DNA of 64,000 nucleotides from the NCBI GenBank assembly GCA_000004985.1, contig GG738853.1; one strand, given 5' to 3'. Origin of the DNA: Naegleria gruberi. Taxonomy: Eukaryota. The number at the start of each line of letters is the position of its first letter. The stretch's first letter is position 1. Shown piece by piece: positions 12,529 through 43,510 of the stretch. The translations under genes and the position numbers were made by a program. Below the pieces are notes generated by a model. It saw only the letters and a list, made by a program, of their open reading frames with translations, ran no database searches and was not told the DNA's origin.

Positions 12529-12556
12529 CTTGTACATTAGTAAATATTGAATTATA

Positions 12557-14626: not shown

Positions 14627-14744
14627 GACTACGGCCATATCACGATGAATGCACCTCATCCCGTCTGATTTGAGAAGTTAAGCATCGTCGAGCCACATCA
14701 GTACTGAGGTTGGAGACAACTTGGGAACCTGTGGTGCTGTAGTC
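14627..14744 (+). rRNA. rrn5: 5S ribosomal RNA gene (copy 1)
   Basis: 'GACTACGGCCATATCACGATGAATGCACCTCATCCCGTCTGATTTGAGAAGTTAAGCATCGTCGAGCCACATCAGTACTGAGGTTGGAGACAACTTGGGAACCTGTGGTGCTGTAGTC' matches the 5S consensus (CGGCCATA, CCCGTC, GAAGTTAAGC, GGTGCTGTAG). The 5' and 3' ends pair to form helix I. The 3' domain resembles the Dictyostelium 5S sequence. Confidence 0.93.
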
Positions 14745-14749
14745 TTTTT
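14745..14749 (+). terminator. Pol III terminator (T5 run) directly after 5S copy 1
   Basis: TTTTT immediately follows the 5S 3' end. After it comes a short direct repeat, 'ttaatttttgaaattttttt' x2, at 14749..14790. Confidence 0.7.
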
Positions 14750-15133
14750 AATTTTTGAAATTTTTTTTAATTTTTGAAATTTTTCAAGAAGTAAATTTAT
14801 GAATTCAGATAATGATTCCAAAAAAGAGAATTCAATTTAATATGTTGAAAGAGCATTCTTATGGAGATACAACCCTCAAAATATTTGGAACACTCATTGA
14901 AAAGCAAGCATGTTATTGTCAATTTTTAAGAAAAAACAATTTGGTTCTATTTTACCAATTGAATGATTCTGTTGTTTTAAAAGCGTAATGCAAAACAGGT
15001 CTATGCCAGGTATAATAGTCAGTGTCATCAAATACGTTGGTGAGGATATTCTTTTGTGTGAGCTCGTCACAAACACGTATTTCTTCCAATGTTGTTGGCT
15101 TAATGGTGAGTGTTTTGGAATCACAGATACCTC

Positions 15134-16138
15134 TCAACACAATGATGACATAATGTTTGACATTTGTTTTAGGGTTCCTTTGATTTCATCTGCTTCTGTT
15201 TTGATGATAGCGTCAATTACTTTGGCTATTTTTTCATCTGGCAAGGTTATTTCACCATTTACAAAGCTGGCAATCTTCTCATCATTAGATTTCAAAGATA
15301 TTGAGCCACACTCTTCTTCTAACAAAGTTGTGTGATTGCTAGAAATATGAATGGCACTGGCAAGTTGCTCTTCCACAAACTGAAGCATGTAGCCTGCAAT
15401 AATTTGGCAATCCTCGTTATCTGAAATGAAATCACTCAAGACAACAAGGGGAAATGGTGTTTCAATATCTTTTTCAGTTACTCTTTTGATTTTGATTTCT
15501 TCAAGTACTTGCTTTACACTTTCCAGCATTTGATGATTGTAAATTCTTTTTCTCTTTTGGATATCCGGAGAGCACTTTTGATATTGGGAATTGGTGATTG
15601 GTTTCGTAATGTAATATAAATAACATTCTTTCTTCCCTTTAGCTCTGTTTCTACTGCCGTTGATTTCCCACAATTAGATGGGCCATAAATATAGCTTAAC
15701 CTTGGAATGCAATCAGTTCTACACAACTCCTTCAACACTTCTGCTCCTTTTTTCACACAAGTCTATTCCTGGTATCATTGCAATTGTTGGTTCGAATGGT
15801 GTGTTCATTTTCTCCCTTACTTCTTGCAACAAGTCCTCAGAGTAATTGAGGTTATTTTGTTGTTGTTGCTGTGCATCTCTAGCGACCAATATGGCGTATA
15901 CTGATAAGGTGATACTCAACACGGATGATGCAGTAGTGAGTATTTTGCTTAGTGTTTCCTTTTCATTGGTTTTGTTCTCCTTGGTTTGTTGTGAGGAATC
16001 TGGTAATGGAACGAAACTGTACATCTCATTTCTGGTCCGAAAGAAAAAACTAAGAAACGATTGCTCACAACAGTACGGTATAACGAGCGAAGCATCTTGT
16101 ATTTTTTTGTTGCACCAATTGAAATAGGGGAGTTTCAC
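15134..16138 (-). pseudogene. P-loop NTPase locus with an N-terminal TM segment. Three overlapping ORFs are offset by single-nucleotide frame shifts. It is either a pseudogene or a real gene carrying homopolymer sequencing errors.
   Basis: ORF 15719..16138 (a TM-like 'ILTTASSVLSITLSVYAILVA' followed by polyQ), ORF 15514..15756 (Walker A 'YIYGPSNCGKST') and ORF 15134..15673 are consecutive. Each changes frame at an A-run (for example A6 at about 15759-15764, A5 at about 15560). No GT...AG pair of a plausible size can bridge the shifts. Confidence 0.4.
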
Positions 16139-16143
16139 AGAAA

Positions 16144-16752
16144 CTAAATTTCTTCTGTACTACTACTTGAATAATCATAGATTTCTCCAATATCTTCATC
16201 AGTTACAGCATACAGATAATCCAGATATGAGTTTGGAGCGTATTGAAAAATGAAATCAAATGGGGTTGGAATTTGAGAAAGAAATGAATCGCAGAACCAT
16301 AGGAAATGTTTGTCCTTTCTGATTGACTCTGGAAACTCAGTATTTAAAAAGCCAAATGATTCCCAAGTAGGAGTATTATCAAGTACTCTTTCGTCTAATT
16401 TCAATTGTTTGAATAATTTAACGATCTCTAATCTTGGTGCTGTTTTACAACTAAATATATCAATCCATTCATTTTCAGATGTTGAATGTTCATCAGCTGA
16501 AAATCCAATCCTTGCCTTAATATCAAGGTTAACATCTATGAATCTGTTGTAGTAAGTACTTGCTTTCACGTACAGATTTACACAAATTGGTTTCTCTTTC
16601 AAATAAATATTCATTTCAGATTCAATATTAGCAAACTGATTCAGTCCGTCATCGGCAGCCAAGGTTAGAAAATAGCATGGTTGAGTGGTTTTTAACATGT
16701 ACCATGATTTAGTAATATCGGTATTGTACAGCTTACTATTGATATTATGCAC
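16144..16752 (-). CDS. Hypothetical protein of 202 aa as shown in the track, open further upstream to an acceptor near 16826. It may be the 5' part of the adjacent P-loop locus.
   Basis: The ORF ends 5 nt before the start of the P-loop ORF at 16138, in a different frame. The upstream frame is open through 'YFRKCCFHKFDSFERNRLDNPYYNEGKFQHDRV' and preceded by a TATTTCAG acceptor. I see no recognised domain. Confidence 0.35.
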   Translation of the reverse strand: MHNINSKLYNTDITKSWYMLKTTQPCYFLTLAADDGLNQFANIESEMNIYLKEKPICVNLYVKASTYYNRFIDVNLDIKARIGFSADEHSTSENEWIDIFSCKTAPRLEIVKLFKQLKLDERVLDNTPTWESFGFLNTEFPESIRKDKHFLWFCDSFLSQIPTPFDFIFQYAPNSYLDYLYAVTDEDIGEIYDYSSSSTEEI

Positions 16753-16882
16753 CCTATCATGTTGGAACTTTCCTTCATTGTAATATGGATTGTCTAGTCT
16801 GTTTCTTTCAAAGCTGTCAAATTTGTGAAAACAACACTTTCTGAAATAGGTCCAATCAGTAATTTCATTAACATTCGAACAT

Positions 16883-17200
16883 TTATTTCCACATTAAATT
16901 AAACAAAGTTTTCCAAAATAAGGAATTTTCATAAATTTTCTCCATCATTTGACGATTAATTTTGTAAATTTGATTGTAAAATAAATTTTCATAACCTGCA
17001 AATGAATAAATTAATAACCATTCATCACCAGTTAATTTGGTTAGTGGTTTTTCTTCCGATTTCTTTTTCTTTTTTAATTGTTCAGAGACTTTATCTAATA
17101 TTGTGGAATAATCAAACTCTTCAGAATTTTCCTGTGAACGAAGGATGGAAACAATTCTCTCCACAAGTTGGTCACCATTTCTCTTTCTCTTGAGAGACAT
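16883..17200 (-). CDS. Hypothetical small basic protein of 105 aa. It might be the 5' exon of the downstream 16144..16752 gene.
   Basis: The ORF 'MSLKRKRNGDQLVERIVSILRS...' is followed about 60 nt downstream by an acceptor leading into the next ORF. No clean canonical donor is seen, so I list it separately. Confidence 0.3.
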   Translation of the reverse strand: MSLKRKRNGDQLVERIVSILRSQENSEEFDYSTILDKVSEQLKKKKKSEEKPLTKLTGDEWLLIYSFAGYENLFYNQIYKINRQMMEKIYENSLFWKTLFNLMWK

Positions 17201-17316
17201 TTTTTTTGAGTAAATATAATTCCAATGTTCATCTCTTATTTATTAACAAGAGAAAAATTACCTTTACAAAATGAAAATATTCAACTAATGCAAAAATCAG
17301 GTTATTTATAAACAAT

Positions 17317-20300
17317 TTATTCGTGCATATCAGAAACAAGGGAACCATTTGAATCATACAAACTGGCAAACTTCAAAACAGCTTCTTGTGAGAATTCACC
17401 TGGAGCAATACCTCTCTGAGATTTGTATTCAGTCTTACGAGGAACCATTTCAATACAATCCAAAACTGGACAAACAGAGTAACACAAAGTACAACCAGTA
17501 CAATCGTCATCACTAACCTTTGGAATGTGAGTGTCCTTATCGAAAGAAATGGCTTGATAACCACTGTCATTACAAGTCAGGTAGCATTTACCACAATTGA
17601 TACACTTGTCATCATTAATGACAGCAATAACGTGGTGATCGAATTTTGGATCCAATTCACCCCAAGAACCAATTCTTGGAACAGCCTTAGCAACAACATC
17701 GTTAATGGATGGAACCTTGATAACTTGTTCAATTTCAGCTGGCATATTATCTTCATGTCTACCAGTCAAAACTCCCTTTTCTTCAATTTCCTTGACATCG
17801 AGTTCTCTTCTCTTCAATTCATATGGACCAAATCTTGGCAAACCAACTTTCTTTTCTTCTACAACTGGTGGAGTTTGACCAGTCCAACCCTTGAATGCAG
17901 GATGAGCATTGATATACATCAAGGCCTTCAATCCAGTAATGTAATCTTCAATAACAGTAAAATCTTGATTTTGGACAGATGAACAAATTTGGACAACTGA
18001 AGCACCAGCATGAATGAATTGCAAAGCAACATCAGCACTGTCACAACCACCAGTAGCAAGAATTGGATAACCAGGAATGTTCTTAGCAACCTTAGAAACA
18101 GCCTTCATAGCAATTGGTCTAATTGCATTACCACTGACACCACCGTAGGTAGTTCTCTTATTGGCACCAACTGCTGGCCAGGCGGTCGCATCAGGTTTAA
18201 GAGTCATTAAACCAGAAACAGTATTTGTGGCAGTAACACCATCAGCACCACCATCTCTAGCAGCAGTAGCAATTTGCAAAACATCAGTAACGTTTGGAGT
18301 GAGCTTGGCAAAGAATGGAATCTTGGTAACAGCTCTAACCCATTTACAAATATTCAAAACAAGATATGGATCCATACCACAAGCCAAACCTAAACCCTTT
18401 TCACCCATACCGTGAGGACAAGACAAGTTCAATTCAATCATGTCAGCACCAGCTTGTTCGGCCTTAGTAGCAAGGAACTTCCAATCTTCTTCCTTAAAAG
18501 CAGCCATGATAGAGGCAATAACAATCTTAGTTGGATGTTTCTTCTTCAACTCAGTAATAGCAGTACACCAATAAGTAGCAGACTTTTCAGAAATCAATTC
18601 AATATTCATGAAAGCAGATTGATGAGGACCTCTGTTTGTAGTGACTGAACCACGAATAATTCTTGGTGAAACATTAGTAACCAAATCCTTATCCAAACCA
18701 AAAGTCTTAGTGACAGCAAAGCCCCAACCAGCATCAAAAGCACGATCAATCATATCAGCAGTAGTACAAGGTGGAGCAGAAGCAAGACCGTATGGATTTT
18801 CAAACTTGACACCACATACTTCAACTGAAATATCAACCTTATCAACTTCAGTAAAGAACTTTGGAAGTTGAGGAGCATCAGAGAGTCTATCAGCCTTATG
18901 CAATTCTTCTTGGATATAACGATGAATGTACCAAGATGCAGTTTTACCATCATTGCTTGCCTCTACTGTCATACCACTACCAATCAAGTCACCACCAGCA
19001 AAAACACCCTTGACTTCGGTTTCCATTGTTGTATTATTGATAGGAACTCTACCATAATTATTAACAGCAACAGGTGAAAGGGACTTGATAATATTTTCAC
19101 TCTTCAAAGTGCAACCAAATGCAGAAACGACAAAGTCACATTTGAGTCTGATGAACTGATCTTCATCAATGACAAGTTTACCATTAGAGTCAACTTCAGT
19201 CTTGTACAATTCGATACCAGAAATTCTGCCATCCTTCATGATAATTTGTTTTGGTAAACAATTTGGAAGTACGTCACACTTTTCCTTCATGGCTGGTTCA
19301 AATTCTTCTTCGACACATCTCATTTCAGAGAAACCACGACGGAAAACAAGAACAGCCTTATCAGCTCCACATCTAATACTAGAACCATAAACATCGAGGG
19401 CAGTATCACCAATACCCAAAATAACAACCTTACCATATAACTTTGGAAGCTTTTGGTTTGATGCCTTACAACCACAGATACCATCCTTTGATGATTGCAT
19501 GACCGCTGGAAGGAAATCCTTAGAGGTGTAGAAACCTTGTTCTGGGGTCAATCCGTCAAAGATTGATTCCTTATTTGGATCTGGAAGACCAATACCCAAA
19601 AAGATGGCTTCATAACCATCATTCTTGAGTGATTCAACAGTGAAATCTCTTCCTAATTCCTTGTTATATTCGACTTTAACACCCAAATCCTTCATCAAGT
19701 TGACTTCAAACTCAACAGCTTCGTATGGGAGACGATTTTGTGGAATTTCTTGAGTGCTCAAACCACCAGCATATTGTCCCTTTTCAAAGATGGTAACATT
19801 TTGATAACCCATTCTAGCCAAGAAAGTAGCACATGAAATACTGGCAGGACCTGCACCAACGAGAGCAATCTTGGCCTTGTATGATTCTGGTAATTTGTCG
19901 AGAGGAGTAGCATCTGGGTCTCTGATTTGTTTCAATTTCATCTTTCTAAAGACATCAGTTGCGAATGCTTGCAAACCACTATTGTTTTTTGATTGTTGTT
20001 ATTGAAAGTAAATTGCATTACACAAATATTGGTAATAAATGTATTTTGTGTTAAAATCATGGTGAAATTTAACAACTTACTTGATATTAATTGGGCCTTC
20101 TTCGGTAGCAGCCAAGTTACAGCTTCCTGCACACAAATTACTAACAGGACAAACCATACCACATGACAAACCTAGTGGATTGTCAGAGAAAATCATCTTG
20201 GCAGCACCATAGTAATTTCCAGTAGAAATACAACTAATAAAACTCTTAATATCCAATGAAGTTGGACAAGAAGATTGACATGGAGCGTCAGCACTATCAT

Positions 20301-20957
20301 TATGAAATATTCCAATTTTCAAAATGCATCAAACATTATGATGATTGAAAGGTAAAAAGTGCAAAAATGTGAATTGATTCCATTTTAAAATAATATTTCG
20401 CAGAGTTTTTTTTGCACAGGCAAAGGATTGATGTGGAATTTTGGTACAGTAGCAATAGTAGTGAACGGAAGGCATCAAAAAGGATAAATACATTAGTTTG
20501 TTCATCATCACGGTAATTAAATTATTGCATTTTAATTTTACAGTTGTGAAAATATTAACAACTGTCTTGATATTTTGATCAATTACATACCACTTTAAAC
20601 ATCTGCTTGCTTCCACGATAGCACTCTTCTCTGTCAATGTAGAGTGCTTGTTGTCTCTAAAATCATATTTTAATTGTTTGGTCTATTTGATGATTCGTTA
20701 TTTGGCGTTGTTTTGTATGAAATGATCAATCACATCATTTGAATTGATCAAAATATTATTGATAATAAAATTGTCGTTTTCTGAGTTTAAAAAGAAGGAA
20801 CACTTACATTGATTGGAATATTTCTCTTGTAGTGTTGCTTAAGCTTTTCAGTTTCCTTGCTTGGTCTCACTGAAGCATACTTTTGAATCTTTGGGTTGAG
20901 ATTTAAATTTTCAATGTCTTCCAATCCAAGAGTTAGGAAATTAGTCGATGAGGCCAT
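17317..20957 (-). CDS. pyd1: Dihydropyrimidine dehydrogenase [NADP+] (DPD) in 4 exons: 20957..20808, 20682..20591, 20293..20081 and 19978..17317
   Basis: Exon 4 (886 aa) aligns across the whole FAD/NADPH, DHODH-like TIM-barrel and C-terminal 2x[4Fe-4S] domains of human DPYD ('[24 protein letters not shown]', '[20 protein letters not shown]', '[19 protein letters not shown]'). Exons 1-3 encode 'MASSTNF...[10 protein letters not shown]...', '[21 protein letters not shown]|C' and '[18 protein letters not shown]...[27 protein letters not shown]', matching human residues about 1-175 with all Fe-S cysteines. The splices are GTAAGT/GTATGT...TAG and phase-checked. The introns are 125, 297 and 102 nt. 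Confidence 0.9.
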
Positions 20958-21635
20958 GTTTTATATTCTTCTATTACAAAATTGCAGCACTTTTTTCTTA
21001 TAGTAGTGTTTGTGTTGAGTTTTCTTTTGTACAATTAGATTTTTTAAACAACACAAAAGAGCAGATGAACTTGAGGGTTTTTTTTTGAGTTCTGTTAGTG
21101 TGCAACACTTGGTGTTTTGTGTGAAGGATCACTTTTAAAATGTCGTCACAGAATGCATTCTTTCTGTTGGTGATCAAAGCAAAAAGCAGGCGGATAGCTA
21201 TGAGGATTGTGAAGAAATTTAATTGTGGAATGATTCATGACGAGTTTTGATGTGATCAATTTCATGATGATTTTGTAATGACAAGCTCAGTGCGGAGATG
21301 ATAGATGAGAAATAGGGCAACTTTCAGCTTTCGCATTGGAATGAAACAGAAAGTATTTCCTGGTATTAGGTGTCAATAGTTGCCAAGAATAAATATTTTG
21401 TAGTAAGGTGTTGTTTGCCCATCGTAATATTACAACAAAACAGTAAAGCAACTCTCCACAAATATAGTTTTTAATATGGTGTGGCTGTTTTTTCACTGAG
21501 TCCTTAAATAGTGCCTACTGTTAGTTGTACAGTTCTTTATTAAGACTTTTAAAAGAGCTAAACAATTTAAAAAACCAGCTGGTGGCATATTGTTTTGCTT
21601 GGAAAACCAACAAGGCAGAACTAATTGTCTCTACA

Positions 21636-22832
21636 TTAATACATTAATGTAAATACTTCAATTTCCTTCACAATAAAGTTCTTTCCTCCAGCAAAATAGT
21701 TCTTATCAAAAGGAGCTAATGGTTGACCTACCAATGTTGAGGAAGATGCATTGTTGGCAACTGTCTGAGAGGATTGTTGTTGATCATTTGTTAGTGTGAG
21801 TGTTCCTTCCATATAGCTACATGGAAAAGTCATCGAGTCAGGCCTTGTATCACAATTATTACAAATGAAAATATCGTGACCAGAGCCAAATGTTGGCCCA
21901 TTTACCAGTCTATTTTGAATTGCATATCTGGAGGCATGGTGCTTGATTGGATGTTTTGAAGGAATATTATTTACATTCACTAAAGAGAAGAGGAATGCAT
22001 TTGGATCTCGAGAATATCCACTAAATGAATTCCAGCTGACTTCTGTGTATCCTCCAAAGATGCAATTATTTGAGGTTCGAATAATAGTAACAGTTGGTCC
22101 CTTATTGTCGCACTTTGAATGGAATGACCTCGAATCAAATCCATCTCTTGATCCTTGCCACAACAGTTTCCATTTTCTATCCTTTTCCACTCCAACAAAT
22201 GAATTCAATACTTCACATAATTCTATTGTCAAAACCTTTGTCCTTATGAATATCTTCATTCCACTTGCATAGTTGCATTCATTATTTGGAGCATATCTAT
22301 AGGAAGATGCTCTTCCTATTGAGACAAGAGATTCCAATTCAGGCATTATTTCTTCCAAATGCTCACACAAGCCAACTAATTGATAATAGTTAGCTTCCAA
22401 ATATAATCTTTTCAGAGCTAATTTATCTTCGGGAAGAACATATTGATTTCTCGACCCAGAAGCTCTCAAATAATTGAGAATGAATGGAAAATAGGTTGGA
22501 TCTCTGTCTAGAAAAATTCTTCCTTTCTCATCAGTAGTAAACGGGATTGATCCTTCCAACATGATGGAAAACATATTATCTGGATAATACTCTTCTTGAT
22601 CATCTTGATGCTTATTAATATTCGGAATTTTGTAAATTATTGTCTCTTTAAGAATGGTAAACTTTTTCCCACCAACATTCAGATGAACGAGAGTGTCATC
22701 AGAGTATCTATTTGGTGATTGCTCTTCAAGAGCTTGCTTCACTGCAATCTGTATTCTACTCTCCAATTGATCCAATAATTCCTCGGATAAAGTCGTGCTC
22801 ATTGTATTGTTATTTTTTCTAACTGAATGCAA
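21636..22832 (-). CDS. BTB/POZ (T1/KCTD-type) protein with a TLDc domain
   Basis: The N-terminus 'VHLNVGGKKFTILKETI...DRDPTYFPFILNYLR' has the BTB_2 signature. The C-terminus 'KLLWQGSRDGFDSRSFHSKCDNKGPTVTIIRTSNNCIFGGYTEVSWNS...DPNAFLFSL...GHDIFI...NYFAGGKNFIVKEIEVF' is TLDc-like. It is a single exon. Confidence 0.6.
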   Translation of the reverse strand: MHSVRKNNNTMSTTLSEELLDQLESRIQIAVKQALEEQSPNRYSDDTLVHLNVGGKKFTILKETIIYKIPNINKHQDDQEEYYPDNMFSIMLEGSIPFTTDEKGRIFLDRDPTYFPFILNYLRASGSRNQYVLPEDKLALKRLYLEANYYQLVGLCEHLEEIMPELESLVSIGRASSYRYAPNNECNYASGMKIFIRTKVLTIELCEVLNSFVGVEKDRKWKLLWQGSRDGFDSRSFHSKCDNKGPTVTIIRTSNNCIFGGYTEVSWNSFSGYSRDPNAFLFSLVNVNNIPSKHPIKHHASRYAIQNRLVNGPTFGSGHDIFICNNCDTRPDSMTFPCSYMEGTLTLTNDQQQSSQTVANNASSSTLVGQPLAPFDKNYFAGGKNFIVKEIEVFTLMY

Positions 22833-22883
22833 CCGACTTTACTAAGGAAATAGATTAATTGAACCTACTGGTAAATATAACCT

Positions 22884-24059
22884 CTATCGACGTTCAATTA
22901 AAATTCCATGCATTCCCCATCTGCTAACACCCTCTATAAATATTCCAAGACATAGACCAGAACATAATGTTCCAATATTGAAATAGCCAGTAGATCTGAA
23001 TAGTGGAATAATAATCAGAAATAAAAAATAATGATGCATGTGAAGGTAATGTGTCTTTCTAACATGTGACAGAGAAATGTAAACTATTGAAACAAACAGA
23101 AAGAAGAAAAAATAGCCAAGTGCATAAGCAATTAAAATATCGATACCAGATTTTGTAATGAAAGTAAATATTTGGAGACCAATCACTACAAGTAAAGCAA
23201 TAGCTGATATCAAGACTCCAATCCATTCAAAAATTCTAATTTCTTTCCACCTATTTGAGTTTGCAATTCTATCACCAAATAATTGTAAAAATTCAATTTT
23301 GTCTAAATAAGTGAATTGAAGTCCAATATAATAAGCTATAACGAAAATTCCATTATTTAAAAAGTAGGAAAATGCTGTTGATGTAGTAGATGTCTCAATA
23401 CAACTCATAACTCCAACTAAATAAATTGGAAAATACACAAAAATATCCTTCTTAGATCTCTTCCTGTTTTCTACCAGTTTAAAAGATCTAGGGCTCAATA
23501 AATTAATCAACTCACTACATGTACCCTCTCTATCTTGCAGATAATATTTGGAAAATTCTCTAAATGATCTTCCCCTTATAGATTCTATCAACTTTTTGAA
23601 AAAGTGCTTAATCCAAAAAACATGTCCAAACTCCTCAACACTAAACTCTTCATTCTGAACATTTTTCTGTTGCACCACCACAAGTTCTCTATACAAACAT
23701 CTTTGCTCCGTAACATTGGATACGTAGAAAAATCCCATCACCAACAATATCATATACCACATCCACTTGAAAATCTCATTCACAATTTCATATCCAAAAA
23801 TCTGAATATCCGGACAAGCCCAAAACCCAATCACCAATACAACACTATTCAATATTACAAAATATAAAAATCCAATTCCTATTAATTTCACTCTCGATTT
23901 CCAATAATCTCCATCATAGGAAGCATATCTAATTTCCACTACTTCCTTCGGTCCAGATAAATCATCTTGTTCATTGGATTGTTCATCACCATCGGAGGCT
24001 CGCTGAATATCATCATCATCACTACCATTATCAATGGGTACTCCTTCCAATAATGCCAT
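22884..24059 (-). CDS. Hypothetical multi-pass membrane protein of 391 aa with an acidic N-terminus and about 8 hydrophobic segments
   Basis: It is one long ORF, with hydrophobic runs such as 'LIGIGFLYFVILNSVVLVIGFWA' and 'IGVLISAIALLVVIGLQIF'. I recognise no family. Confidence 0.4.
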   Translation of the reverse strand: MALLEGVPIDNGSDDDDIQRASDGDEQSNEQDDLSGPKEVVEIRYASYDGDYWKSRVKLIGIGFLYFVILNSVVLVIGFWACPDIQIFGYEIVNEIFKWMWYMILLVMGFFYVSNVTEQRCLYRELVVVQQKNVQNEEFSVEEFGHVFWIKHFFKKLIESIRGRSFREFSKYYLQDREGTCSELINLLSPRSFKLVENRKRSKKDIFVYFPIYLVGVMSCIETSTTSTAFSYFLNNGIFVIAYYIGLQFTYLDKIEFLQLFGDRIANSNRWKEIRIFEWIGVLISAIALLVVIGLQIFTFITKSGIDILIAYALGYFFFFLFVSIVYISLSHVRKTHYLHMHHYFLFLIIIPLFRSTGYFNIGTLCSGLCLGIFIEGVSRWGMHGILIERR

Positions 24060-25970: not shown

Positions 25971-25977
25971 AAATGAT

Positions 25978-30365: not shown

Positions 30366-30440
30366 CTTATCAATGTGTTTCCAATAAGTTGCGAACACAA
30401 AATAATACAAATCGAATGTACATAATAAATGTAAAATAAT

Positions 30441-32812: not shown

Positions 32813-32952
32813 TTTTTTTAATTTTACTTTTAATTGTGTTGTGGAAATTGTTTAATTATTAAAAATTGATTGAGGTGAAGAAATGGTGATTTGTTGGGTG
32901 GAAAGAATAAGTGCTCGAGAGGGAATGTTATTTTTTGGGAGAGTTTGAATCA

Positions 32953-33848: not shown

Positions 33849-34319
33849 AATTTTTTCAATATGTTAACATAGACTTTGAACAAAAGCACTCCAAGGTTAT
33901 CCGTTGTGGTAAATGATCTGGAAATGTCACCGACTCTCACACTATAATATATGTCAAAATAAATCTATTCGGAGTTTCAATAAGAAATAAGCAGTTGGAT
34001 GGACTGCAACTGTAACCGAGTTAGTATCGAGTAACTTGTGTATGGAACAAATAGGAAGCAGGTCTAAGTTTGTCTGGCCAATACCATGGAAATTCTTAGA
34101 TAACATGAGAAGGAGTAATAACCATGGCCATTTAAGGCAATCTATTTACTGAAGAATCAAACGAAACTGCTTCCTTTTTGCTGTTAGAAACAGTTCCATT
34201 TCATGTTTTGGCAATACCCTGATATTAGATGTTTGTTTAGTGGTCTCATTAGCATTTAATCCACTGTAAAATCTTTACCAAATCGATCTCAAGTTTATTG
34301 ATAAAACTTTATGAATAAT

Positions 34320-36047
34320 TTAATATGATCTACCGAACAAAGCCCACTTGTTTGGCTTTCTGTCAGATAATTCTGGACAGAAGACTTCACAATCACCCAA
34401 TGATGGATAAATAGATTGATCAAGAGGAACACACAATGACTTGGCAGCACCAGTCAATCCAGTGTTAGAATCAGAATCACTCAACATGGCGCTTTCCTTC
34501 TTGGATCTTTCCTTAATGTATTCTTCAGCCTTCTTTTCTTCTTCAATCTTGGCATCATATTCCTTACGTTCTTCTTCAGAGAGATCTTCCAAAACAACAT
34601 CATCTTTGTGAGTTTGACGCCATGGAATCAAAACTAAATTACCAGCATTGAGGGCAGTCATGAATTCTTCCCAAGTCCTAGCAACAGAAATTCTTTGATT
34701 TCTTACTTCTCTAGCCTTTTCCAACATGGAATTGTGAATCTTGTCCAAAATCTCATTGACGTATTGAGCAGTAAGTTGTTCAAGAGGAACTGACCATTTT
34801 TCACCATTATCTCTTCTACAAAGCATAGCTACACCATTTTCCAAATCCTTTGGACCAATTTCGATTCTCAAAGGAACACCACGAAGTTCCCAATAATTGT
34901 ACTTCCAACCTGGAGTCTTTTCCAAACGATCATCAAGCTTGATACGAACTCCATTTTCTTCAAGTTGAGCGAAAATTGTCTTTGACTTTGTTTCCAATTC
35001 ACTATTATCCTTATTCTTAAAGTAGAGAGGAATGAGAACAACTTGAGTGAAAGCAACTCTTGGTGGCAAGACCATACCCTTGTCATCACCGTGGACCATG
35101 ATCATAACACCCAATGAACGAGTTGACAAACCCCATGAATTTTGATAGACGAGCTTACTCTTCTTATCTTCAGCTTCGAATTCAATCTTGAACATTCTAG
35201 AGAAGTTTTGACCTAAGTGGTGACTTGTGGCAGCTTGAACAGCTCTACCATTTGTTGGAATGAAAGCTTCAATAGTTGTTGTAAAATCGGCTCCAGCAAA
35301 CTTTTCAGCTTCAGTCTTCTTACCCTTAATGACTGGAACAGCCAAAATTTCTTCATAAGTTCTCTTGTACAATTCCAAAATATCATAAACTTCAGTTTTA
35401 GCTTGTTCGAAATTCTTGAAAGCACTGTGACCTTCTTGCCAGTAGAATTCTCTTGATCTAATGAAAGGAACGGCATGTTTGAATTCCCATCTAACAACGT
35501 TGGTCCATTGGTTCAATTTTAATGGCAAATCTCTGTGAGACTTAATCCACTTGGCATATGATGGATACATAATAGTTTCGGAAGTTGGTCTCAAAGCGAT
35601 TGGTTCATCCAAATCAGAGTTACCAGACTTTGTAACCCAAGCAACTTCTGGGGAGAATCCTTCAACGTGATCCTTTTCAGTTTCGAGAGCTCTCTTGGTA
35701 ACAAACATTGGGAACATTACGTTTTGAACGCCCAACTTTTTAATGTGACCATCAAAGAAGTTTTGTACCTTTTCCCAGACATAGAAACAATTTGGTCTAA
35801 AGATATAACATCCACTGACTTCATAGTAATCAAGGAAATCACTCTTGGTGATAACTTGAGTATACCATTCAGAGAAGTTTTCAGCCTTCTTGACATCAAC
35901 ACCTTCGTTTTGTTTGTTTCCGGCAGCTGAAGATCCTTGTTGTTGTTTTGGAGCCTTTGGTTCTTTTGGTGGTTTGACCTTCTTTTCTCTTGGTTGCTTT
36001 TGAACAGTTTCAGCAACTGGAGTTTCTTGTTGTGGTGAATCAGACAT
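34320..36047 (-). CDS. Prolyl-tRNA synthetase (class II, eukaryote/archaeal type) with a lysine-rich N-terminal extension
   Basis: The class II motifs and anticodon-binding region are present, and the C-terminus reads '...NKWALFGRSY' (the ProRS zinc-binding C-terminal domain). It is one 575-aa exon. Confidence 0.9.
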   Translation of the reverse strand: MSDSPQQETPVAETVQKQPREKKVKPPKEPKAPKQQQGSSAAGNKQNEGVDVKKAENFSEWYTQVITKSDFLDYYEVSGCYIFRPNCFYVWEKVQNFFDGHIKKLGVQNVMFPMFVTKRALETEKDHVEGFSPEVAWVTKSGNSDLDEPIALRPTSETIMYPSYAKWIKSHRDLPLKLNQWTNVVRWEFKHAVPFIRSREFYWQEGHSAFKNFEQAKTEVYDILELYKRTYEEILAVPVIKGKKTEAEKFAGADFTTTIEAFIPTNGRAVQAATSHHLGQNFSRMFKIEFEAEDKKSKLVYQNSWGLSTRSLGVMIMVHGDDKGMVLPPRVAFTQVVLIPLYFKNKDNSELETKSKTIFAQLEENGVRIKLDDRLEKTPGWKYNYWELRGVPLRIEIGPKDLENGVAMLCRRDNGEKWSVPLEQLTAQYVNEILDKIHNSMLEKAREVRNQRISVARTWEEFMTALNAGNLVLIPWRQTHKDDVVLEDLSEEERKEYDAKIEEEKKAEEYIKERSKKESAMLSDSDSNTGLTGAAKSLCVPLDQSIYPSLGDCEVFCPELSDRKPNKWALFGRSY

Positions 36048-36575
36048 CTGTGATGATGAAAAATATTTTTTTTTTAAAGATGATTTTAGTTTTTTGAAGA
36101 GGAAAATTTAAATAGTCACGATCAACTTTTATATTATTACACAATGAATTCAATATATTGGCAAAATAATATTATTAGTGGTTTGTGGTCTTTAGAAATA
36201 GCACATACTATGCAAATTAAAATCCCTATTTGAAGTCGGGTTTGGTGCAAATTTGAATTTCTTGTTGGAATTTGAAGCAAATTGAAGGCTTGTGACTCAG
36301 CTCATTTTTAAATTGCTTGGAACTAATAATAAGTAATACAACATTGTACGTTTGATGAGCTATCATGGATATCAAAGAACAATTATTGACTCTACATTGC
36401 TATCATTATTTCGAATCAAAGAAGCGTCGATGATCGTCAATACGAGCAATTATTGGTGTAATGAAAAGGTAATTTTTTCTCCAATCCAAAAACGACCATT
36501 TGTAAGAGTCAACCACTTGCGATCCCAATTTGTACATAAATCAGTACAAGAATTTATAAAAGTCAAACTTAAAAA
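36048..36575. promoter_or_regulatory. Divergent promoter region shared by ProRS (-) and the small mitochondrial-like protein gene (+)
   Basis: The two start codons face away from each other 528 bp apart. The region is A/T-rich with oligo(dT)/(dA) tracts. Confidence 0.35.
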
Positions 36576-36896
36576 ATGAGAGTACTTAGATCATTCAACA
36601 ACAACTTGAGAAAGCTCACCAGAGGACATGATGCCCACGCCCATCATCACGAGGTAAGTGAAAATAATATTTTGATCAAACCAACATTGGACTTGAACAA
36701 CAACAAAAAAACATTGTATTTAAATATTATTGATTAACAATAGCTCGTCTGCCTCAATAATGGACCACCATCAAAGGCTGCTGCCCTCACTTTCCTTGGA
36801 TCTTTGAGTGTTGTTCCAACTCTTTTGACTAGTTTGTGGTATGCCACTTATGTTGGTAATCCAATTACTAGAGCTTCCCAAAAGAAGGAAGAATAA
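36576..36896 (+). CDS. Small single-TM protein with a mitochondrial-presequence-like N-terminus (COX7A-like?). Exons are 36576..36653 and 36744..36896.
   Basis: 'MRVLRSFNNNLRKLTRGHDAHAHHHE|LVCLNNGPPSKAAALTFLGSLSVVPTLLTSLWYATYVGNPITRASQKKEE'. GTAAGT at 36654 and ACAATAG at 36743 define a 90-nt intron. The gene is divergent from ProRS. Its identity is unverified. Confidence 0.4.
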
Positions 36897-36976
36897 ATCC
36901 ATTCAGCTAGCATGCAAAATAACTAGTAAATATCGAGATGGGCCAAACAGAAAAAAGAAAATAAATTAGGTTGGTT

Positions 36977-38737
36977 TTATTCATTATCACTGTCGTTGTA
37001 TTCTCTTCTCTTTTTACTTTCAGGTTCTTCGAGTGTAGAATCGTGGTTTTGTTTCATCATTTCTTTCAAAGCCATTGTTGCAGCCATTTGTGCTATTCCA
37101 ACTGCCTTTTCTTGTTCTTGTTTAAAGTATTCGGTTGGTGTTTGTGGACCTAGTTGATTTTGAGGAGCTGTCTCTTTTCTTGGCTTTGAGAGAGCAGCAT
37201 TGGTTGTTCTCATAATTGATGAGGTGTAACCATCCCAGATTTGATCAGTACCAACAGATGAGCCTTCTTGTGTTTCACTATCTTCATTCCATGAGGCAAT
37301 AACTTTGGTCATTTCAATACCTGGAGCAATGTTAGTTTTTTCTCTCTTTGCCTTTTCTCTTTCTTTCTGTTCAAAGTATTGTGGATTAATTGTAGAAACT
37401 TTGAGATGTTTCTCTGCTCTATCAACTGGAATGAGTTCACCAGTTTTTTTATCCTTAAACATGAGAGGTGTGGATGATTTGACACCTTTTTGAGGTTGAT
37501 AAGTTCTGGCAAATCTACTCGGATCTAACTCTTCCTCATCCTCATCTTCATCATTCATACGGTTTTCTTCTTGTATATCTGTAAAGGTTGGTTCTGCAGG
37601 ATTAACATTTTCATCTTCGTTTGTTTCCATTTGATTCATATCTGAATCAGCAAATCCACTTGGATACATATTTTCATAAATATTTTCCTCTGGTTCTACA
37701 AATTCTTGTTCATTGATTTCCTCTTCCTCTTCCTCGTCGTCCATTTCAATTTCATTAATATCTTCATCAAAATCTATTGTCTGTACTACAATAAAGTCTT
37801 GCCAGTCAATCATGTCGAATACTGATTTGTCTTCATCTCTACCAAGTTGTTCCTTTCTTTGATTTTCTTCTTGTATCAATTCCCATTCAGCTTTCTGAAG
37901 GAGCATATCGAGTACTTGTAATTTCTTATCACTATCTGAGAACATGTTGAGATATTTAAAGATGTGATCTTCTGGCTTAACTGAAATTTGTTGAAGTTCA
38001 GAATTTGGATTATTTGGAATGTTATTTTCTTGATTGTACTTTTGAATTTGCATTGGTGTTAATCGGTCTGGGTGGATAATTCCAGTATAGATATCTACAA
38101 GCTTTGTGAAAAAGTGAAAGTGTCTGTGATTAGGCTTTAAAAAATCAAATTGAGGATTACTACTTTCCAAAGATGCAATTTCGAACATAAATTGCTTTCC
38201 ATTAGCAGCTGTATATTGAGCAGTCAATTTGATAATATCCAATTCTAAAGGTTTAATCGAGGAAGGAATTGTTGTATCATAGAAATATTCGAATGGGTCC
38301 CTAGTTGGTTTTTCTCGAGATCTGTTCATGTAAAATGCAACAGAGGCACTCTTAGATATGTTTCCAACAGTAATTTCCGACTTTTCTGATTTTAATGTTT
38401 CAAAATCGTCATCATCATCTTTAAATTCATCATTCTCAAATTCCTCTTCCAAGGTTTTAAATTTCTTTAATTTTTCCACAATATGTTTATAATACTTGTT
38501 GTATGGATTTTCTGGGAGGAGGAAATTAAATGTATTTTCATTACTTGACAAGAGTTGTTTCTCGGGAATTTTACTAGATACAATATGTTCTGCGGTAACT
38601 TCAATGGTCCTCTTCAATGCTGGAGGTGGAATAATAATTCCAATCTTTTTAGAATCGGTTGCTAATTCCGAAGATGATCCAAGACCACCGATCAGTGTAT
38701 TGTTATTAGTGTGGGATGAAGGGTGAGGATTTTGCAT
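36977..38737 (-). CDS. sf3a1: Splicing factor 3a subunit 1 (SF3A1/Prp21) with two SURP domains and no C-terminal ubiquitin-like domain
   Basis: SURP1 'FNFLLPENPYNKYYKHIVEKLKK' matches human 'FNFLNPNDPYHAYYRHKVSEFKE'. SURP2 'LTAQYTAANGKQFMFEIASLESSNPQFDFLKPNHRHFHFFTKLVDIY'. The middle region is acidic and repeat-rich. Confidence 0.8.
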   Translation of the reverse strand: MQNPHPSSHTNNNTLIGGLGSSSELATDSKKIGIIIPPPALKRTIEVTAEHIVSSKIPEKQLLSSNENTFNFLLPENPYNKYYKHIVEKLKKFKTLEEEFENDEFKDDDDDFETLKSEKSEITVGNISKSASVAFYMNRSREKPTRDPFEYFYDTTIPSSIKPLELDIIKLTAQYTAANGKQFMFEIASLESSNPQFDFLKPNHRHFHFFTKLVDIYTGIIHPDRLTPMQIQKYNQENNIPNNPNSELQQISVKPEDHIFKYLNMFSDSDKKLQVLDMLLQKAEWELIQEENQRKEQLGRDEDKSVFDMIDWQDFIVVQTIDFDEDINEIEMDDEEEEEEINEQEFVEPEENIYENMYPSGFADSDMNQMETNEDENVNPAEPTFTDIQEENRMNDEDEDEEELDPSRFARTYQPQKGVKSSTPLMFKDKKTGELIPVDRAEKHLKVSTINPQYFEQKEREKAKREKTNIAPGIEMTKVIASWNEDSETQEGSSVGTDQIWDGYTSSIMRTTNAALSKPRKETAPQNQLGPQTPTEYFKQEQEKAVGIAQMAATMALKEMMKQNHDSTLEEPESKKRREYNDSDNE

Positions 38738-38885
38738 TTTTTTTGATTTTATTAAAAATAATTGAACAAGTTGTTTTATAGTGGATGCAAATATTATTGA
38801 CCTAATGAATAACTTTGATTACACAAATACTAATTAAATAAATAATTTTAAATAGTACCTAATGGTTGAAAATTTTGTTTTTTTA

Positions 38886-40148
38886 TTATATACTTTGCTC
38901 AGAAATGAGATCCTCTGGAGGAACATCCAATTGTTTGAAAAAGGACATGGAAAAGAATGGATTTTCACCTCCATCATCATAGGCAACCACATGGTTTGAA
39001 GAAACAGTTATAATCTTTCCATCTAATCTCTTAGCTCTAAAAACTATGAAACAATTATCATTGCTTGCAAGGGCAGATTGTAAAAATGTTGAAAATACTC
39101 GTTGGCGATCTTCCTGAACAACAACATCACTCCACTTGCTAACAATACTCCTAAATTGTTCCAAATCATCATAACCAAGTAGTTTCAAAACACAAGAGTT
39201 GGCACTTAAAATCCTTCCAGTGTCTCCACTCGTTATTATGACTCCCAAACCAGAGCTGGCTCTTCCCAGAAAGTTATTCTTGAATTCTACAAAGCTTGAA
39301 GCAAAATCTGTTAATTCTCCCTTTACACGAGCATTTTCTTGTTTGAGAGTTTGGATTTCACCCTCTAAGGATTGAATTTTAGCAATCAAGTTTTGAATTT
39401 GTTGGTTGTTTGAACCTGGCAAAGAGGCTATTTGTGATTGCTGTTGTTGTGGCTGTTGTTGTGGAACTGCAAAGTTCTGGTTGGCTAAAATAGAGGCCAA
39501 TAAGCTTACCGATGATTGATTACTGTTGTTATTATTATTAACTGGTCTTTGATTACCAGAGAGTGGAGTAAAATTAAAAGGAGGAGAAGATTGAGGGTAA
39601 GGTTGTTGAGTATTATTCATCATTGGATAGGGAGATGAGCTTGGAGAAGGTGTATTAAATTGTTGTTGTTGTTGTTGCTGATTATTCTGGTAGTTGTTTG
39701 GAGATCTTTGAAGAGATTGAAAAAGAGATGGAGGAATCTGACCACTATTATTGTTGCTCATATTGTTGATGGAAGGGAAATTATTGTTAGGTTGAAGGGG
39801 TGAAGCAATAGTATTAGTAGCTTGTTGTTGTTGTTTGGAAATGTTATTGAATTGGAGGAATTTAGAGATGGTATTATTGATGATATTTTGTCCAACAACA
39901 GGATCAATTAATAAATCGCCTCCCTCGTTGTTGTTATTATTATTATTGGTACTACTATTATTTAAAGTAGAACTTGTTGTACGGAAGGATGACTCTTGTG
40001 ATAGGAATGAATTGATATCCGAGAGTTGTTGTTGTTGTGGTTGAGCAGTAGTGGTATTGGAAGAAGACTTGTTGGCTCCTGGATTATTATTATTGTTATT
40101 ATTGGAAAAGAATGGATTGGATGGATCGTTCATCGAGTGGTTCTTCAA
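38886..40148 (-). CDS. PolyQ/N-rich protein with a coiled-coil and a C-terminal PAS-like domain
   Basis: Long (CAA/AAT)n-encoded Q/N tracts lead into the heptad 'IQNLIAKIQSLEGEIQTLKQENARVKGEL'. After that comes 'GVIITSGDTGRILSANSCVLKLLGYDDLEQF...FIVFRAKRLDGKIITVSSNHVVAYDDGG', which has a PAS fold. Confidence 0.5.
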   Translation of the reverse strand: MKNHSMNDPSNPFFSNNNNNNNPGANKSSSNTTTAQPQQQQLSDINSFLSQESSFRTTSSTLNNSSTNNNNNNNEGGDLLIDPVVGQNIINNTISKFLQFNNISKQQQQATNTIASPLQPNNNFPSINNMSNNNSGQIPPSLFQSLQRSPNNYQNNQQQQQQQFNTPSPSSSPYPMMNNTQQPYPQSSPPFNFTPLSGNQRPVNNNNNSNQSSVSLLASILANQNFAVPQQQPQQQQSQIASLPGSNNQQIQNLIAKIQSLEGEIQTLKQENARVKGELTDFASSFVEFKNNFLGRASSGLGVIITSGDTGRILSANSCVLKLLGYDDLEQFRSIVSKWSDVVVQEDRQRVFSTFLQSALASNDNCFIVFRAKRLDGKIITVSSNHVVAYDDGGENPFFSMSFFKQLDVPPEDLISEQSI

Positions 40149-40872
40149 TTAATTGTTGCTATTTTAAATAGGATTAGATGACTGAAAAACAATGAGATAG
40201 TGGCTGAGTTTGTAAAAGAAATAATATCTCTAGACACAAAACTTGTGTGTTTCTGTTCTTGGAGTTGATGTTGTTGTGCAGTAGCAATAAAATCAAACCG
40301 CAACACATAGAAAAAAGTGCGGAATACCTTTTGCTAAATTTTTTAAATTGTTTCAGGTACGGTTTTGCGAGTTGCTGATAAAATTGCTAAATGCAAGTAC
40401 CAGATAAAAATCTCCCGTAAGCCAAGGTAGTCAAATAAGAGAATGAACGCTTTGGTTGAGGAGAAGTATCCCAAATTTATGAATCGCTTCTATGAAACCT
40501 TATTTGTTTTCTTATGAAAATGAAAATAATTAGAAAAATCAAACAACACAGGAAAAAGCAATAAGAATATTCTTCAAGATTCTTATCCTTGTACACTAAG
40601 GAAAGAATATTCTCTCAATGATTGTTTTATTAACTAACAACAATTGACTTGAGTGAATATTCGTTCATTCGTAGGAAATTCTGACTTCCAAAAATGTCGG
40701 GGAAAATCTTGATAAATATGATCACTAGTAAGAATCTTTGCAAAGATATCAATTATTTCCTGGAAAGGAATTTACAATAATAATTGAAAAATAATAAATA
40801 ATATATGAATTCAATATCAAAGCAAAAATCACCTTCATTCTTTTTGTTGATGAAAAAGTTAATAATAAAAAA

Positions 40873-41964
40873 ATGTCATCAAATCATCACAATTTTGATA
40901 CCAATTTTGATACTGTTCTTGCATTCAACATTTTGAAATTCACTCATCATGAAGAGTGGAGTGTTATCAAGCCATTTCTCATCTCATCTTCATTTAGGAA
41001 TGTATTTGAATCGGAGGAGTTTGCAAAGCAATACTTGTTGAATTGGTTTCAATTATCGGAAGAGGAGATTAATCAATTGGAAAGATTTGGTCTTGAATTT
41101 GGAAGGATTTGGAAAAACAATTCAGAAAATACAGATGAACAACCACAAAAGAAGAGAAAGATGGATCGTGAAATTGTAACAGAGACCTTTTCACCTCCAC
41201 AAACAATGAATGAAATTTTACAAATGTACACCAAACTATTCTATAAAGTAAATCTGGAAAAGACCAAGACACGTATCATTGAAACATTGAATAATTATAA
41301 TAGAGGTGATAGGAATAGTGCAGAAAAGATTTCAGAAATTAAAAAATTGGTTGCCTGTATGGAGTGTGATGAACTGATTGCTCAATCATTCAAACGATTT
41401 GGTAACAATAGTTTGGCAAGTGTTGAGACTAAGGAGAAGGACTTTACATTTAATAGATTAACAGTTCAACAATGTTTTGGAAGAGTGAAAGAAGTTTTTC
41501 TGTTGGATCATGTTGTGGAGGAAAGAGTTACTGATTTTGTTACCAAGAATGAGATTATTGTATTTACAAATATTGGATATCCTCTCTTACTGAAAACAAC
41601 ATTTATTAATGGATATAGTCTTGATCAATCTGAGAATTTATACATTTACTCTCACGAATTATTCAACAATCAGAGAAGAGAAAACATGAGAGTAAGTCAA
41701 TATTCTCAAACTCACAATCAAGAGCTTTTAGATTCACTGAAAACAATACTCCTTTCCAAAAGAGCGAATGAGTTTTTGATAAGAAATGGAGTCAAAGTTC
41801 ATCAAATTGATGATGTAAAACAAGCAATGATTTATGATTTTCTAGAATTGAGTTTTGGAAGTTTCAATTCATCCTTTAGATTGGACAGCTTGGGCTGGAT
41901 TCCTTTTGTAGGAAAGGTTAAGGGTGATGGAGATGATTACGAATCAGACGATTCTGACTATTAG
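40873..41964 (+). CDS. Hypothetical protein (363 aa)
   Basis: It is a single long ORF with an acidic C-terminus and no recognised domain. Confidence 0.4.
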   Translation: MSSNHHNFDTNFDTVLAFNILKFTHHEEWSVIKPFLISSSFRNVFESEEFAKQYLLNWFQLSEEEINQLERFGLEFGRIWKNNSENTDEQPQKKRKMDREIVTETFSPPQTMNEILQMYTKLFYKVNLEKTKTRIIETLNNYNRGDRNSAEKISEIKKLVACMECDELIAQSFKRFGNNSLASVETKEKDFTFNRLTVQQCFGRVKEVFLLDHVVEERVTDFVTKNEIIVFTNIGYPLLLKTTFINGYSLDQSENLYIYSHELFNNQRRENMRVSQYSQTHNQELLDSLKTILLSKRANEFLIRNGVKVHQIDDVKQAMIYDFLELSFGSFNSSFRLDSLGWIPFVGKVKGDGDDYESDDSDY

Positions 41965-42499
41965 AAATAATCAGATTATTCAATAACTCCAGTTTTTCTG
42001 GAGAATAATTGTTTCAAGGTAGAATCAAGTTTATTCAGCAGAAGGAGGGTAACATCTATTCCTTTGAACACTATCTTGTTTCAAATAACAGGATTTACCA
42101 GAATTATTTTCCCAGTAATTATTTAGATACTGATATATTTGTATCATTAGGAATGACTAGCTTTTGTGAAATGTATAGACTTTGGAAAGTGTCAGAATTT
42201 GGATTTGTGGGTATTGTGGTCGATTTGATTGTTTGTTGCTTATTGCCATAATTATTATAATTAAATATCAAATTAAAACTCAGTAAATATAACTCTTACT
42301 ACCTATACGGATATTTATACGTAAACTCATCAATGTTTGGAAAATATTCAATCACATTCATAATACTCCCACAGAGGGGCCATTAAATAAACGAATCTTT
42401 ACAATGTAAGGCAGCAAATCCCTACACGAATCTTAGATAGTCTAAAGATTTGGTCTCAGGTTGTTATTGATATAAGAGACATTAATAAAGTTTCACGTT

Positions 42500-43210
42500 T
42501 TATTGTTCTCTAATAGCACCAATAAAAAGTGATGTTAATTGTTTCATTTCACGTATGAATTTGGATCCTTCTACACCAATTTGATTGTGACTAATGTCAA
42601 GCGATGTTAATTGTTTCATTTCACTTATGAATTTGGATCCTTCTACACCAATTTGATTGTGACTAATATTAAGTGATGTTAATTGTTTCATATCACTTAT
42701 GAATTTGGATCCCTCTACACCAATTTCATTATAATATATATCAAGTGATGTTAATTGTTTCATTTCATGTATGAATTTGGATCCTTCTACACCAATTTGA
42801 TTGTTCCCAATATTAAGTAATGTTAATTGTTTCATTCCACTTATGAATTTAACTTTATCTGGAGAGTTAAGCAACCTAAAGGAACACTTAACATTTACAA
42901 TACTATTCATGAATTGACTTTTCATTAACAATTCAATTCTATTTTCTGTAAATTGTTTTTTAAATTGAATAACAAGTTTTGAACGTTCCTTGATCACATT
43001 AAACCATTGTTTTGAAATTAAAGTACAATTATTTAAAATAAACCACGAATCAAGCATTGAAATTATTTCAAAACAAACATCATCTGAAAATATTTCTTTT
43101 TCGAGTTTTACAAGCTTTGCTTTCTCTTCCATATTAGTATTGTTAGTGAATATTTCCTCCAAATTAATGAATTGATGATTTTCAAAATCTTGTCTGTTTC
43201 GTTTGCTCAT
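42500..43210 (-). CDS. F-box-like / LRR (RNI-type) protein containing a perfect 24-aa (72-bp) tandem repeat
   Basis: The N-terminus 'FSDDVCFEIISMLDSWFILNNCTLISKQWFNVIKE' is F-box-like. The C-terminus has 4.5 copies of 'LTSLDISHNQIGVEGSKFISEMKQ'. Confidence 0.55.
   Translation of the reverse strand: MSKRNRQDFENHQFINLEEIFTNNTNMEEKAKLVKLEKEIFSDDVCFEIISMLDSWFILNNCTLISKQWFNVIKERSKLVIQFKKQFTENRIELLMKSQFMNSIVNVKCSFRLLNSPDKVKFISGMKQLTLLNIGNNQIGVEGSKFIHEMKQLTSLDIYYNEIGVEGSKFISDMKQLTSLNISHNQIGVEGSKFISEMKQLTSLDISHNQIGVEGSKFIREMKQLTSLFIGAIREQ
42530..42850. repeat. 72-bp tandem repeat (about 4.5 copies, >90% identical) encoding LRR units
   Basis: '...ttaattgtttcatttcac(g/t)tatgaatttggatccttctacaccaatttgattgtgactaat(g/a)t(c/t)aag(c/t)gatg...' repeats head-to-tail. 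Confidence 0.85.
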
Positions 43211-43386
43211 TTTTTTAATTAAACCTTTGTGTCACTCCAATCCAAAATCAATAATCTTAATAATTCCTCTAATTTTTATGTTAATAATTCACATCGCCAA
43301 AATTTGAACCTGATAATTTTTAAAAGCAATTCATTAACCTTCGAGAAAATACTAATATATTCAATCATCTCGTAAGATGTATTAGC

Positions 43387-43392
43387 AAAAAA
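43387..43392 (-). terminator. Pol III terminator (T6 on the minus strand) after 5S copy 2
   Basis: The plus strand reads 'aaaaaa' at 43387-43392, which is TTTTTT immediately 3' of the 5S gene on the minus strand. Confidence 0.7.
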
Positions 43393-43510
43393 GACTACGG
43401 CACCACAGGTTCCCAAGTTGTCTCCAACCTCAGTACTGATGTGGCTCGACGATGCTTAACTTCTCAAATCGGACGGGATGAGGTGCATTCATCGTGATAT
43501 GGCCGTAGCC
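43393..43510 (-). rRNA. rrn5: 5S ribosomal RNA gene (copy 2, reverse strand)
   Basis: The reverse complement of 43393..43510 is 'GGCTACGGCCATATCACGATGAATGCACCTCATCCCGTCCGATTTGAGAAGTTAAGCATCGTCGAGCCACATCAGTACTGAGGTTGGAGACAACTTGGGAACCTGTGGTGCCGTAGTC'. It differs from copy 1 at 3 positions. Confidence 0.92.

Follow-up and report, generated by a model that had tools for sequence, protein, structure and literature searches.

Two solitary 5S rRNA genes in a 64-kb stretch of the Naegleria gruberi genome, probable members of an already catalogued dispersed family

A 64,000-nucleotide stretch of the Naegleria gruberi genome (contig GG738853.1 of assembly GCA_000004985.1; hereafter the window, numbered from its first nucleotide) contains two 5S ribosomal RNA (rRNA) genes in opposite orientation. 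Both are genuine, full-length and intact. We consider it highly probable (roughly 0.9) that they are members of a dispersed nuclear 5S family of N. gruberi, made up of autonomous RNA polymerase III (Pol III) units of about 125 bp that sit in short intergenic spacers. The feature is already known: such genes are an ordinary, catalogued component of this genome. The three nucleotide differences between the two copies are ordinary family polymorphism, consisting of two wobble-tolerated transitions in helix I and one C/U change in loop C, and they disable neither copy.

The whole window was scanned with Rfam cmscan. Two matches to the 5S model RF00001 exceeded the gathering score of 38, both by a wide margin and both untruncated over model positions 1-120 (Table 1), so that the sub-threshold score that would have spoken against 5S genes did not occur. 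The original prediction, made from the sequence alone, had placed the genes at 14627-14744 (+) and 43393-43510 (-). These coordinates are exact to the base, the prediction stopping at C118 and Rfam adding the first T of the terminator. A permissive Rfam scan (E up to 0.1) and a blastn-short search with the gene as query revealed no further 5S copy, fragment or relic in the 64 kb. Equally, Rfam matched no small subunit (SSU), large subunit (LSU) or 5.8S rRNA in the window, even at E up to 0.1, and ARAGORN found no tRNA gene there. Both 5S copies are thus solitary units. Their flanks are protein-coding, and the description of the pair as solitary, oppositely oriented genes within gene-dense DNA holds.

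Table 1. Coordinates of the two 5S rRNA genes and of their associated elements in the window.
Feature	Coordinates	Strand	Basis
5S rRNA gene, copy 1 (A2, U40, U112)	14627..14745	+	RF00001, 104.8 bits, E 6.5e-22, model 1-120
5S rRNA gene, copy 2 (G2, C40, C112)	43392..43510	-	RF00001, 106.3 bits, E 2.5e-22, model 1-120
Internal control region (ICR), copy 1	14676..14723	+	motif scan: box A 50-64 to box C 80-97
ICR, copy 2	43414..43461	-	motif scan and copy comparison: sequence same as copy 1 ICR
Pol III terminator, copy 1: T5 at 14745-14749 heading an exact 19-bp tandem repeat	14745..14784	+	sequence; Tandem Repeats Finder
Pol III terminator, copy 2: T6	43387..43392	-	sequence
A/T-rich TATA-like stretch TATTTATATTT, copy 1, -31 to -21; putative promoter element, weakly supported	14596..14606	+	sequence
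A/T-rich TATA-like stretch TTTTGATAAA, copy 2, -31 to -22; putative promoter element, weakly supported	43532..43541	-	sequence

The family to which we assign the two genes was described by Chen et al. in 2012 (PLoS One 7:e36878, PMC3369914), who listed 279 putative 5S loci in the N. gruberi genome with coordinates in their Table S1. These authors describe the 5S genes as lying apart from the ribosomal DNA (rDNA) unit and as possessing an ICR, a TATA box and T-run terminators (PMC3369914). The chromosomal dispersal of 5S genes, which the original prediction had put forward as informative, is therefore not novel, since 279 rDNA-unlinked loci had already been catalogued. The same table allowed a genome-wide census, one of the checks suggested beforehand. 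Once parsed, it yields 279 loci spread over 117 scaffolds, 264 of them at least 110 nt long and at least 15 short or of low similarity. Neighbouring loci on a scaffold are a median of 33.9 kb apart (10th percentile 2.4 kb). Among 162 neighbour pairs, just one is separated by less than 1 kb, and the spacing follows no regular period. Table 1 of the same paper scores a "tandem arrangement" of 5S genes as present in N. gruberi; the coordinates in its Table S1 show dispersal with some loose clusters.

Two of the published loci, scaffold_9:430630-430746 and 459390-459508, are 28,760 bp apart, as compared with 28,765 bp for the window copies. A 64-kb window placed over that pair would narrowly miss the next loci on scaffold_9, at 399400 and 481854, in agreement with the presence of only two copies here. 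From the spacing we infer that the window corresponds to about scaffold_9:416-480 kb and that both genes are in the published list. Organism, gene, ICR, T-run and the rDNA-unlinked state are all alike in the window copies and in the family of Chen et al., and we see no difference of substance. Sequence variants among the 5S genes were not discussed in that study.

Position-by-position comparison showed that the copies differ at exactly three sites, positions 2 (A/G), 40 (T/C) and 112 (T/C), the same three that had been listed originally. The third difference of that list, a C/U change, is the one at position 40, in loop C. In helix I, copy 1 has the pairs A2-U117 and G7·U112, and copy 2 has G2·U117 and G7-C112. 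These are the pair states initially reported, and helix I is fully paired in both copies, nine of its nine pairs being standard in each. The two helix I substitutions had also been called compensatory, a term that does not apply. They affect two separate base-pairs, each altered on one side only: pair 2:117 changes between A-U and G·U and pair 7:112 between G·U and G-C. Both are one-sided transitions that involve a G·U wobble; nowhere have the two partners of a pair both changed. Enumeration of the possible changes in helix I shows that a standard pair is kept by 19% of all single substitutions and by 56% of transitions. Because of this high proportion among transitions, the finding of two that preserve pairing argues only weakly for selection.

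Further 5S sequences came from a scan of metagenomes with a 20-mer from helix IV/V. The scan returned three contigs only, one carrying a Naegleria-type gene and two carrying the same distant locus, too few for a variant census or for covariation statistics. The Naegleria-type gene (L006, positions 539-657 of contig Ga0247722_10036048, minus strand) scores 106.3 bits and is near-identical to the window copies. Its haplotype (G2, A24, C40, U112) represents a third combination at the variant sites. Since it combines G2 with U112, and thus has a G·U at both pairs, sites 2 and 112 vary independently. This environmental gene lies 165 bp upstream of a 361-aa open reading frame (ORF), and its flanks are unrelated to those of either window copy. 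The distant locus (L007:301-419 and L008:184-302, both on the minus strand) was recovered from two independent metagenome records, with gene and flanks identical. It contains the exact helix IV/V 20-mer of Naegleria, is otherwise divergent and scores 73.8 bits.

Base-pairs were counted in four sequences, namely copies 1 and 2, the environmental Naegleria-type gene and the distant L007 gene. Pair 2:117 reads GU twice, AU once and GC once; pair 7:112 reads GU three times and GC once. All of these changes are one-sided. Pairs altered on both sides arise only in comparison with the distant L007 lineage, for example at 1:118 and 3:116. Across the same set, 95.5% of the cells are paired, versus 30-44% when the partners are slid, figures obtained from only four sequences and with a structure derived from those same sequences.

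Folding of both copies, another of the checks initially proposed, gave the canonical Y-shape of 5S rRNA each time. The minimum free energy (MFE) and centroid structures of each copy folded alone consist of the three expected arms (helix I; helices II-III with loop C; helices IV-V with loop E/D). The MFE is -42.1 kcal/mol for copy 1 (z -2.8 against dinucleotide shuffles) and -43.7 kcal/mol for copy 2 (z -3.4). The ICR occupies gene positions 50-97, an interval that coincides with the classical 5S ICR, and the variant sites 2, 40 and 112 all lie outside it. In the motif scan, box A was exact to the consensus of Chen et al. and box C had two mismatches; the consensus for the intermediate element (IE) is too degenerate for an informative scan of the ICR.

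The T-runs read as terminators in the original prediction are in place, TTTTT directly after copy 1 and TTTTTT after copy 2. The tandem repeat that begins with the first of these (unit TTTTTAATTTTTGAAATTT, period 19, 2.1 copies, 100% matches, score 80 in Tandem Repeats Finder) supplies successive T-runs past copy 1 (T5, T8, T5); copy 2 has a single T6.

Because each copy is a full-length, high-scoring match with an intact fold, a terminator and an unchanged internal promoter, both are probably functional, as had been suggested; the pair-preserving changes in helix I, on which that suggestion was built, are themselves weak evidence. A different view would be that one copy, more likely copy 1, is silent or decaying and that only a subset of the 279 loci supplies 5S rRNA. 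Copy 1 does have the slightly lower score (104.8 versus 106.3 bits) and the slightly less stable fold, its positions 40 and 112 differ from the Rfam consensus, and the family includes relics, as the short or low-similarity loci in the published list testify. However, copy 1 is full length, with all helix pairs intact, its ICR unchanged and a terminator present. Moreover, the U112 that forms its G7·U112 pair is also found in L006 and in the distant L007 lineage. Because it is shared with both, U112 is tolerated and probably a common state. As to position 40, the U carried by copy 1 is presumably the vertebrate 5S state. A silent or decaying copy therefore seems to us improbable, and we retain the reading that both are probably functional members of the dispersed family.

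The variants could alternatively mark functionally distinct 5S classes, used in different states of the organism such as amoeba versus flagellate or cyst, on the analogy of the oocyte and somatic 5S genes of Xenopus. At least three haplotypes exist at the same three sites, and vertebrates have developmentally specific 5S types (PMC6562748). But the differences are minimal: they leave the structure unaffected and spare the internal promoter. Nor do the genes share a common flank by which classes could be defined. We regard such specialization as very improbable and keep to ordinary polymorphism within one dispersed family.

The window is about 33% G+C, with long ORFs densely packed. On the evidence of ORFs and Pfam matches, copy 1 lies in a spacer of approximately 760 bp that extends from the ATG (14129) of an intron-containing ADP-ribosylglycohydrolase-like gene to the 3′ end (about 14894) of another gene, both on the minus strand. 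Copy 2 lies in a 543-bp spacer, between the ATG (43210) of a leucine-rich repeat (LRR) protein gene and the stop codon (43754) of the gene upstream, again both on the minus strand; it is 182 bp upstream of the former and 244 bp downstream of the latter. The LRR gene (42500-43210, minus strand) encodes repeats of the form MKQLTSL(D/N)I..N.IGVEGSKFI (LRR_8, E 9e-21), and 5S copy 2 sits within its would-be promoter region.

When 300-bp flanks were aligned, the similarity between the copies was found to comprise the gene, the tetranucleotide GAAT at -4 to -1 and the T-run, and nothing more. Since similarity ends at the gene borders, neither a larger duplicated segment nor an rDNA repeat encloses the copies. 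The possibility that they are fragments of a larger rDNA repeat, or rDNA-linked 5S genes, was rejected on the further grounds that no other rRNA occurs in the 64 kb and that the flanks are protein-coding and unrelated. A tandem 5S array was likewise rejected: a distance of 28.8 kb separates the copies, which lie on opposite strands and have unrelated spacers, and there is no regular period genome-wide. The same verdict was reached for a 5S-derived short interspersed element (SINE) or retropseudogene, both copies being full-length, ending in T-runs and devoid of an A-tail or added body; target-site duplications were judged by eye only.

Two protein-coding genes of the window served as anchors for examining 5S positions in related organisms. 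The first encodes prolyl-tRNA synthetase (ProRS) and is located 7.3 kb from copy 2 (ORF 34320-36047, minus strand). Its product is 100% identical over 575 aa to an N. gruberi protein encoded on a 695,587-bp scaffold; the next matches are an environmental protein (P0002, from contigs L004 and L005) at 72%, N. fowleri at 72% and Willaertia magna at 68%. The second anchor, dihydropyrimidine dehydrogenase (DPD; ORF 17317-19974, minus strand), is 2.6 kb from copy 1. A search of a large protein database brought up no N. gruberi protein at 100% identity to it, the best match being N. lovaniensis at 84%. The DPD gene model of N. gruberi may be absent, intron-split or clustered differently.

At each orthologue locus, 10 kb on either side of the anchor was inspected, for a total of 122 kb in all anchor loci combined. 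Within these limits, no 5S gene occurs near the ProRS orthologue in N. fowleri, Willaertia magna or an environmental Naegleria-like contig, and none near the DPD orthologue in N. lovaniensis or Willaertia. Comparison of window segments 11500-24000 and 30000-48000 with five loci (L001, L003, L004, L009 and L010) by tblastn showed that synteny comprises DPD alone in one case and ProRS plus the adjacent Surp/PRP21 gene in the other. The genes flanking the two 5S copies, i.e., the LRR protein gene and ORFs that lack a Pfam match, have no counterpart in the anchor loci. With synteny thus limited to the anchor genes, the absence of 5S at these loci says little about the orthologous sites.

These data bear on a third alternative, namely that the copies are RNA-derived insertions, either retroposed 5S transcripts or a 5S-derived SINE, and not conventional genes. 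The repeated unit is indeed about the size of the transcript, with similarity starting within 4 bp of position 1 and ending at the terminator, and the lack of 5S genes within 10 kb of the anchors in N. fowleri, N. lovaniensis and Willaertia counts in its favour. But the copies show neither an A-rich tail nor an unrelated SINE body nor an evident target-site duplication; they share the GAAT upstream of position 1; both are full length and structurally perfect; and so little microsynteny is left that absence in other species carries little meaning. We attach next to no probability to this interpretation. Having an internal promoter, the copies would remain functional genes even if they had arisen through RNA. 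A related question is how the dispersed family came to be distributed as it is. Naegleria 5S genes might spread and turn over as transcript-sized units, through RNA- or small-circle-mediated insertion into intergenic spacers. We consider such a mode unlikely, although it would agree with the confinement of similarity to the stretch from -4 to the terminator and with the lack of 5S genes near the only conserved anchors in N. fowleri, N. lovaniensis and Willaertia. If it were true, 5S positions would be lineage-specific and would change fast between species.

Under the reading that we prefer, in which both copies are autonomous Pol III units of the dispersed family, the ICR (box A to box C, positions 50-97) would recruit the TFIIIC/TFIIIB machinery, and the upstream A/T-rich TATA-like element would possibly assist. 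Components of TFIIIB and TFIIIC have been reported in the N. gruberi genome (PMC3369914). Transcription would start at or beside G1 and would stop in the T-run directly past C118. The predicted 119-nt RNA should adopt the standard three-helix-junction 5S fold and would join the large ribosomal subunit together with the plasmid-encoded rRNAs discussed below.

Several points weigh against this reading. Chen et al. did not find TFIIIA in N. gruberi (PMC3369914). The upstream TATA-like stretches neither align nor are conserved between copy 1, copy 2 and L006, and they may have arisen by chance, sitting as they do in 67% A+T DNA. The motif TATAG is present upstream of all three genes but at differing distances, and we treated it as a chance occurrence in DNA of this composition. 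The match to scaffold_9 is by spacing only and is about 5 bp off, an offset that BLAST hit boundaries could explain. Finally, either copy could be silent, as far as can be judged from sequence.

The large rRNA genes of Naegleria (18S, 5.8S and 28S) are present as single copies on a circular plasmid of approximately 14 kb, the CERE, which is maintained in thousands of copies and for which no 5S gene is listed (PMC5805870; PMC12482156). A comparison with the organism's rDNA unit had been recommended together with the original prediction: the N. gruberi CERE encodes 18S, 5.8S and 28S only (PMC5805870). With the large rRNAs on the CERE and 5S missing from it, 5S is the sole chromosomally encoded rRNA in Naegleria.

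The original prediction drew a contrast with Dictyostelium discoideum. The statement that the D. discoideum 5S gene resides on the extrachromosomal rDNA element is correct (PMC5391098), but D. discoideum is not the relevant comparison, N. gruberi being a heterolobosean; the assignment of the window to this species is borne out by the 100% identity of ProRS. The two organisms are alike in holding 18S, 5.8S and 28S on a multicopy extrachromosomal element (PMC5805870; PMC5391098). They differ in that the 5S gene of D. discoideum rides on that element, whereas in Naegleria it is chromosomal and dispersed. As Amoebozoa and Heterolobosea are unrelated, the contrast provides no within-group taxonomic signal.

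Dispersed 5S genes occur in Schizosaccharomyces pombe and Neurospora crassa. Dispersed 5S repeats are also found in the macronuclear genome of Tetrahymena (PMC1557398). The window copies resemble the dispersed 5S genes of other eukaryotes in being solitary Pol III units with internal promoters, placed among genes transcribed by RNA polymerase II, and in existing as near-identical copies with unrelated flanks and minor variants. Naegleria differs from those systems in its lineage, Discoba, and in the division of its rRNA genes, with the large rRNAs on a circular plasmid and only 5S on the chromosomes. Within Discoba, the kinetoplastid Trypanosoma cruzi offers a further comparison. Its 5S genes, too, show no linkage to the large rDNA unit and have Pol III as their polymerase, and an ICR has been reported (PMC3369914). 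In T. cruzi, however, they form head-to-tail arrays of about 1600 copies (cited in PMC3369914), unlike the widely separated, oppositely oriented N. gruberi copies with their unrelated flanks.

Elsewhere in the window, an ORF of 1038 aa (60662-63778, minus strand) begins with an N-terminal signal or transmembrane-like segment, followed by a long, repetitive, extracellular-looking region rich in Gly, Ser and Asn, then by a transmembrane segment and the beginning of a protein kinase domain, cut at HR*. By its layout, this ORF is probably a receptor-like kinase that continues in a further exon.

The analysis confirms 5S as the sole rRNA species encoded on Naegleria chromosomes; its significance is otherwise small. 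It also reveals a mismatch within the study of Chen et al., in which the 5S genes of N. gruberi are labelled "tandem" but have coordinates that show dispersal. Two aspects of the family, neither of them new to this window, are of wider concern. In each cell, some 4000 plasmid-borne units transcribed by RNA polymerase I have to be matched by a few hundred dispersed Pol III units, and the 5S family is a reasonable system in which to study how the supply of 5S rRNA is matched to that of the large rRNAs. And with TFIIIA not found by Chen et al. (PMC3369914), the family could reveal how an ICR is read without this factor.

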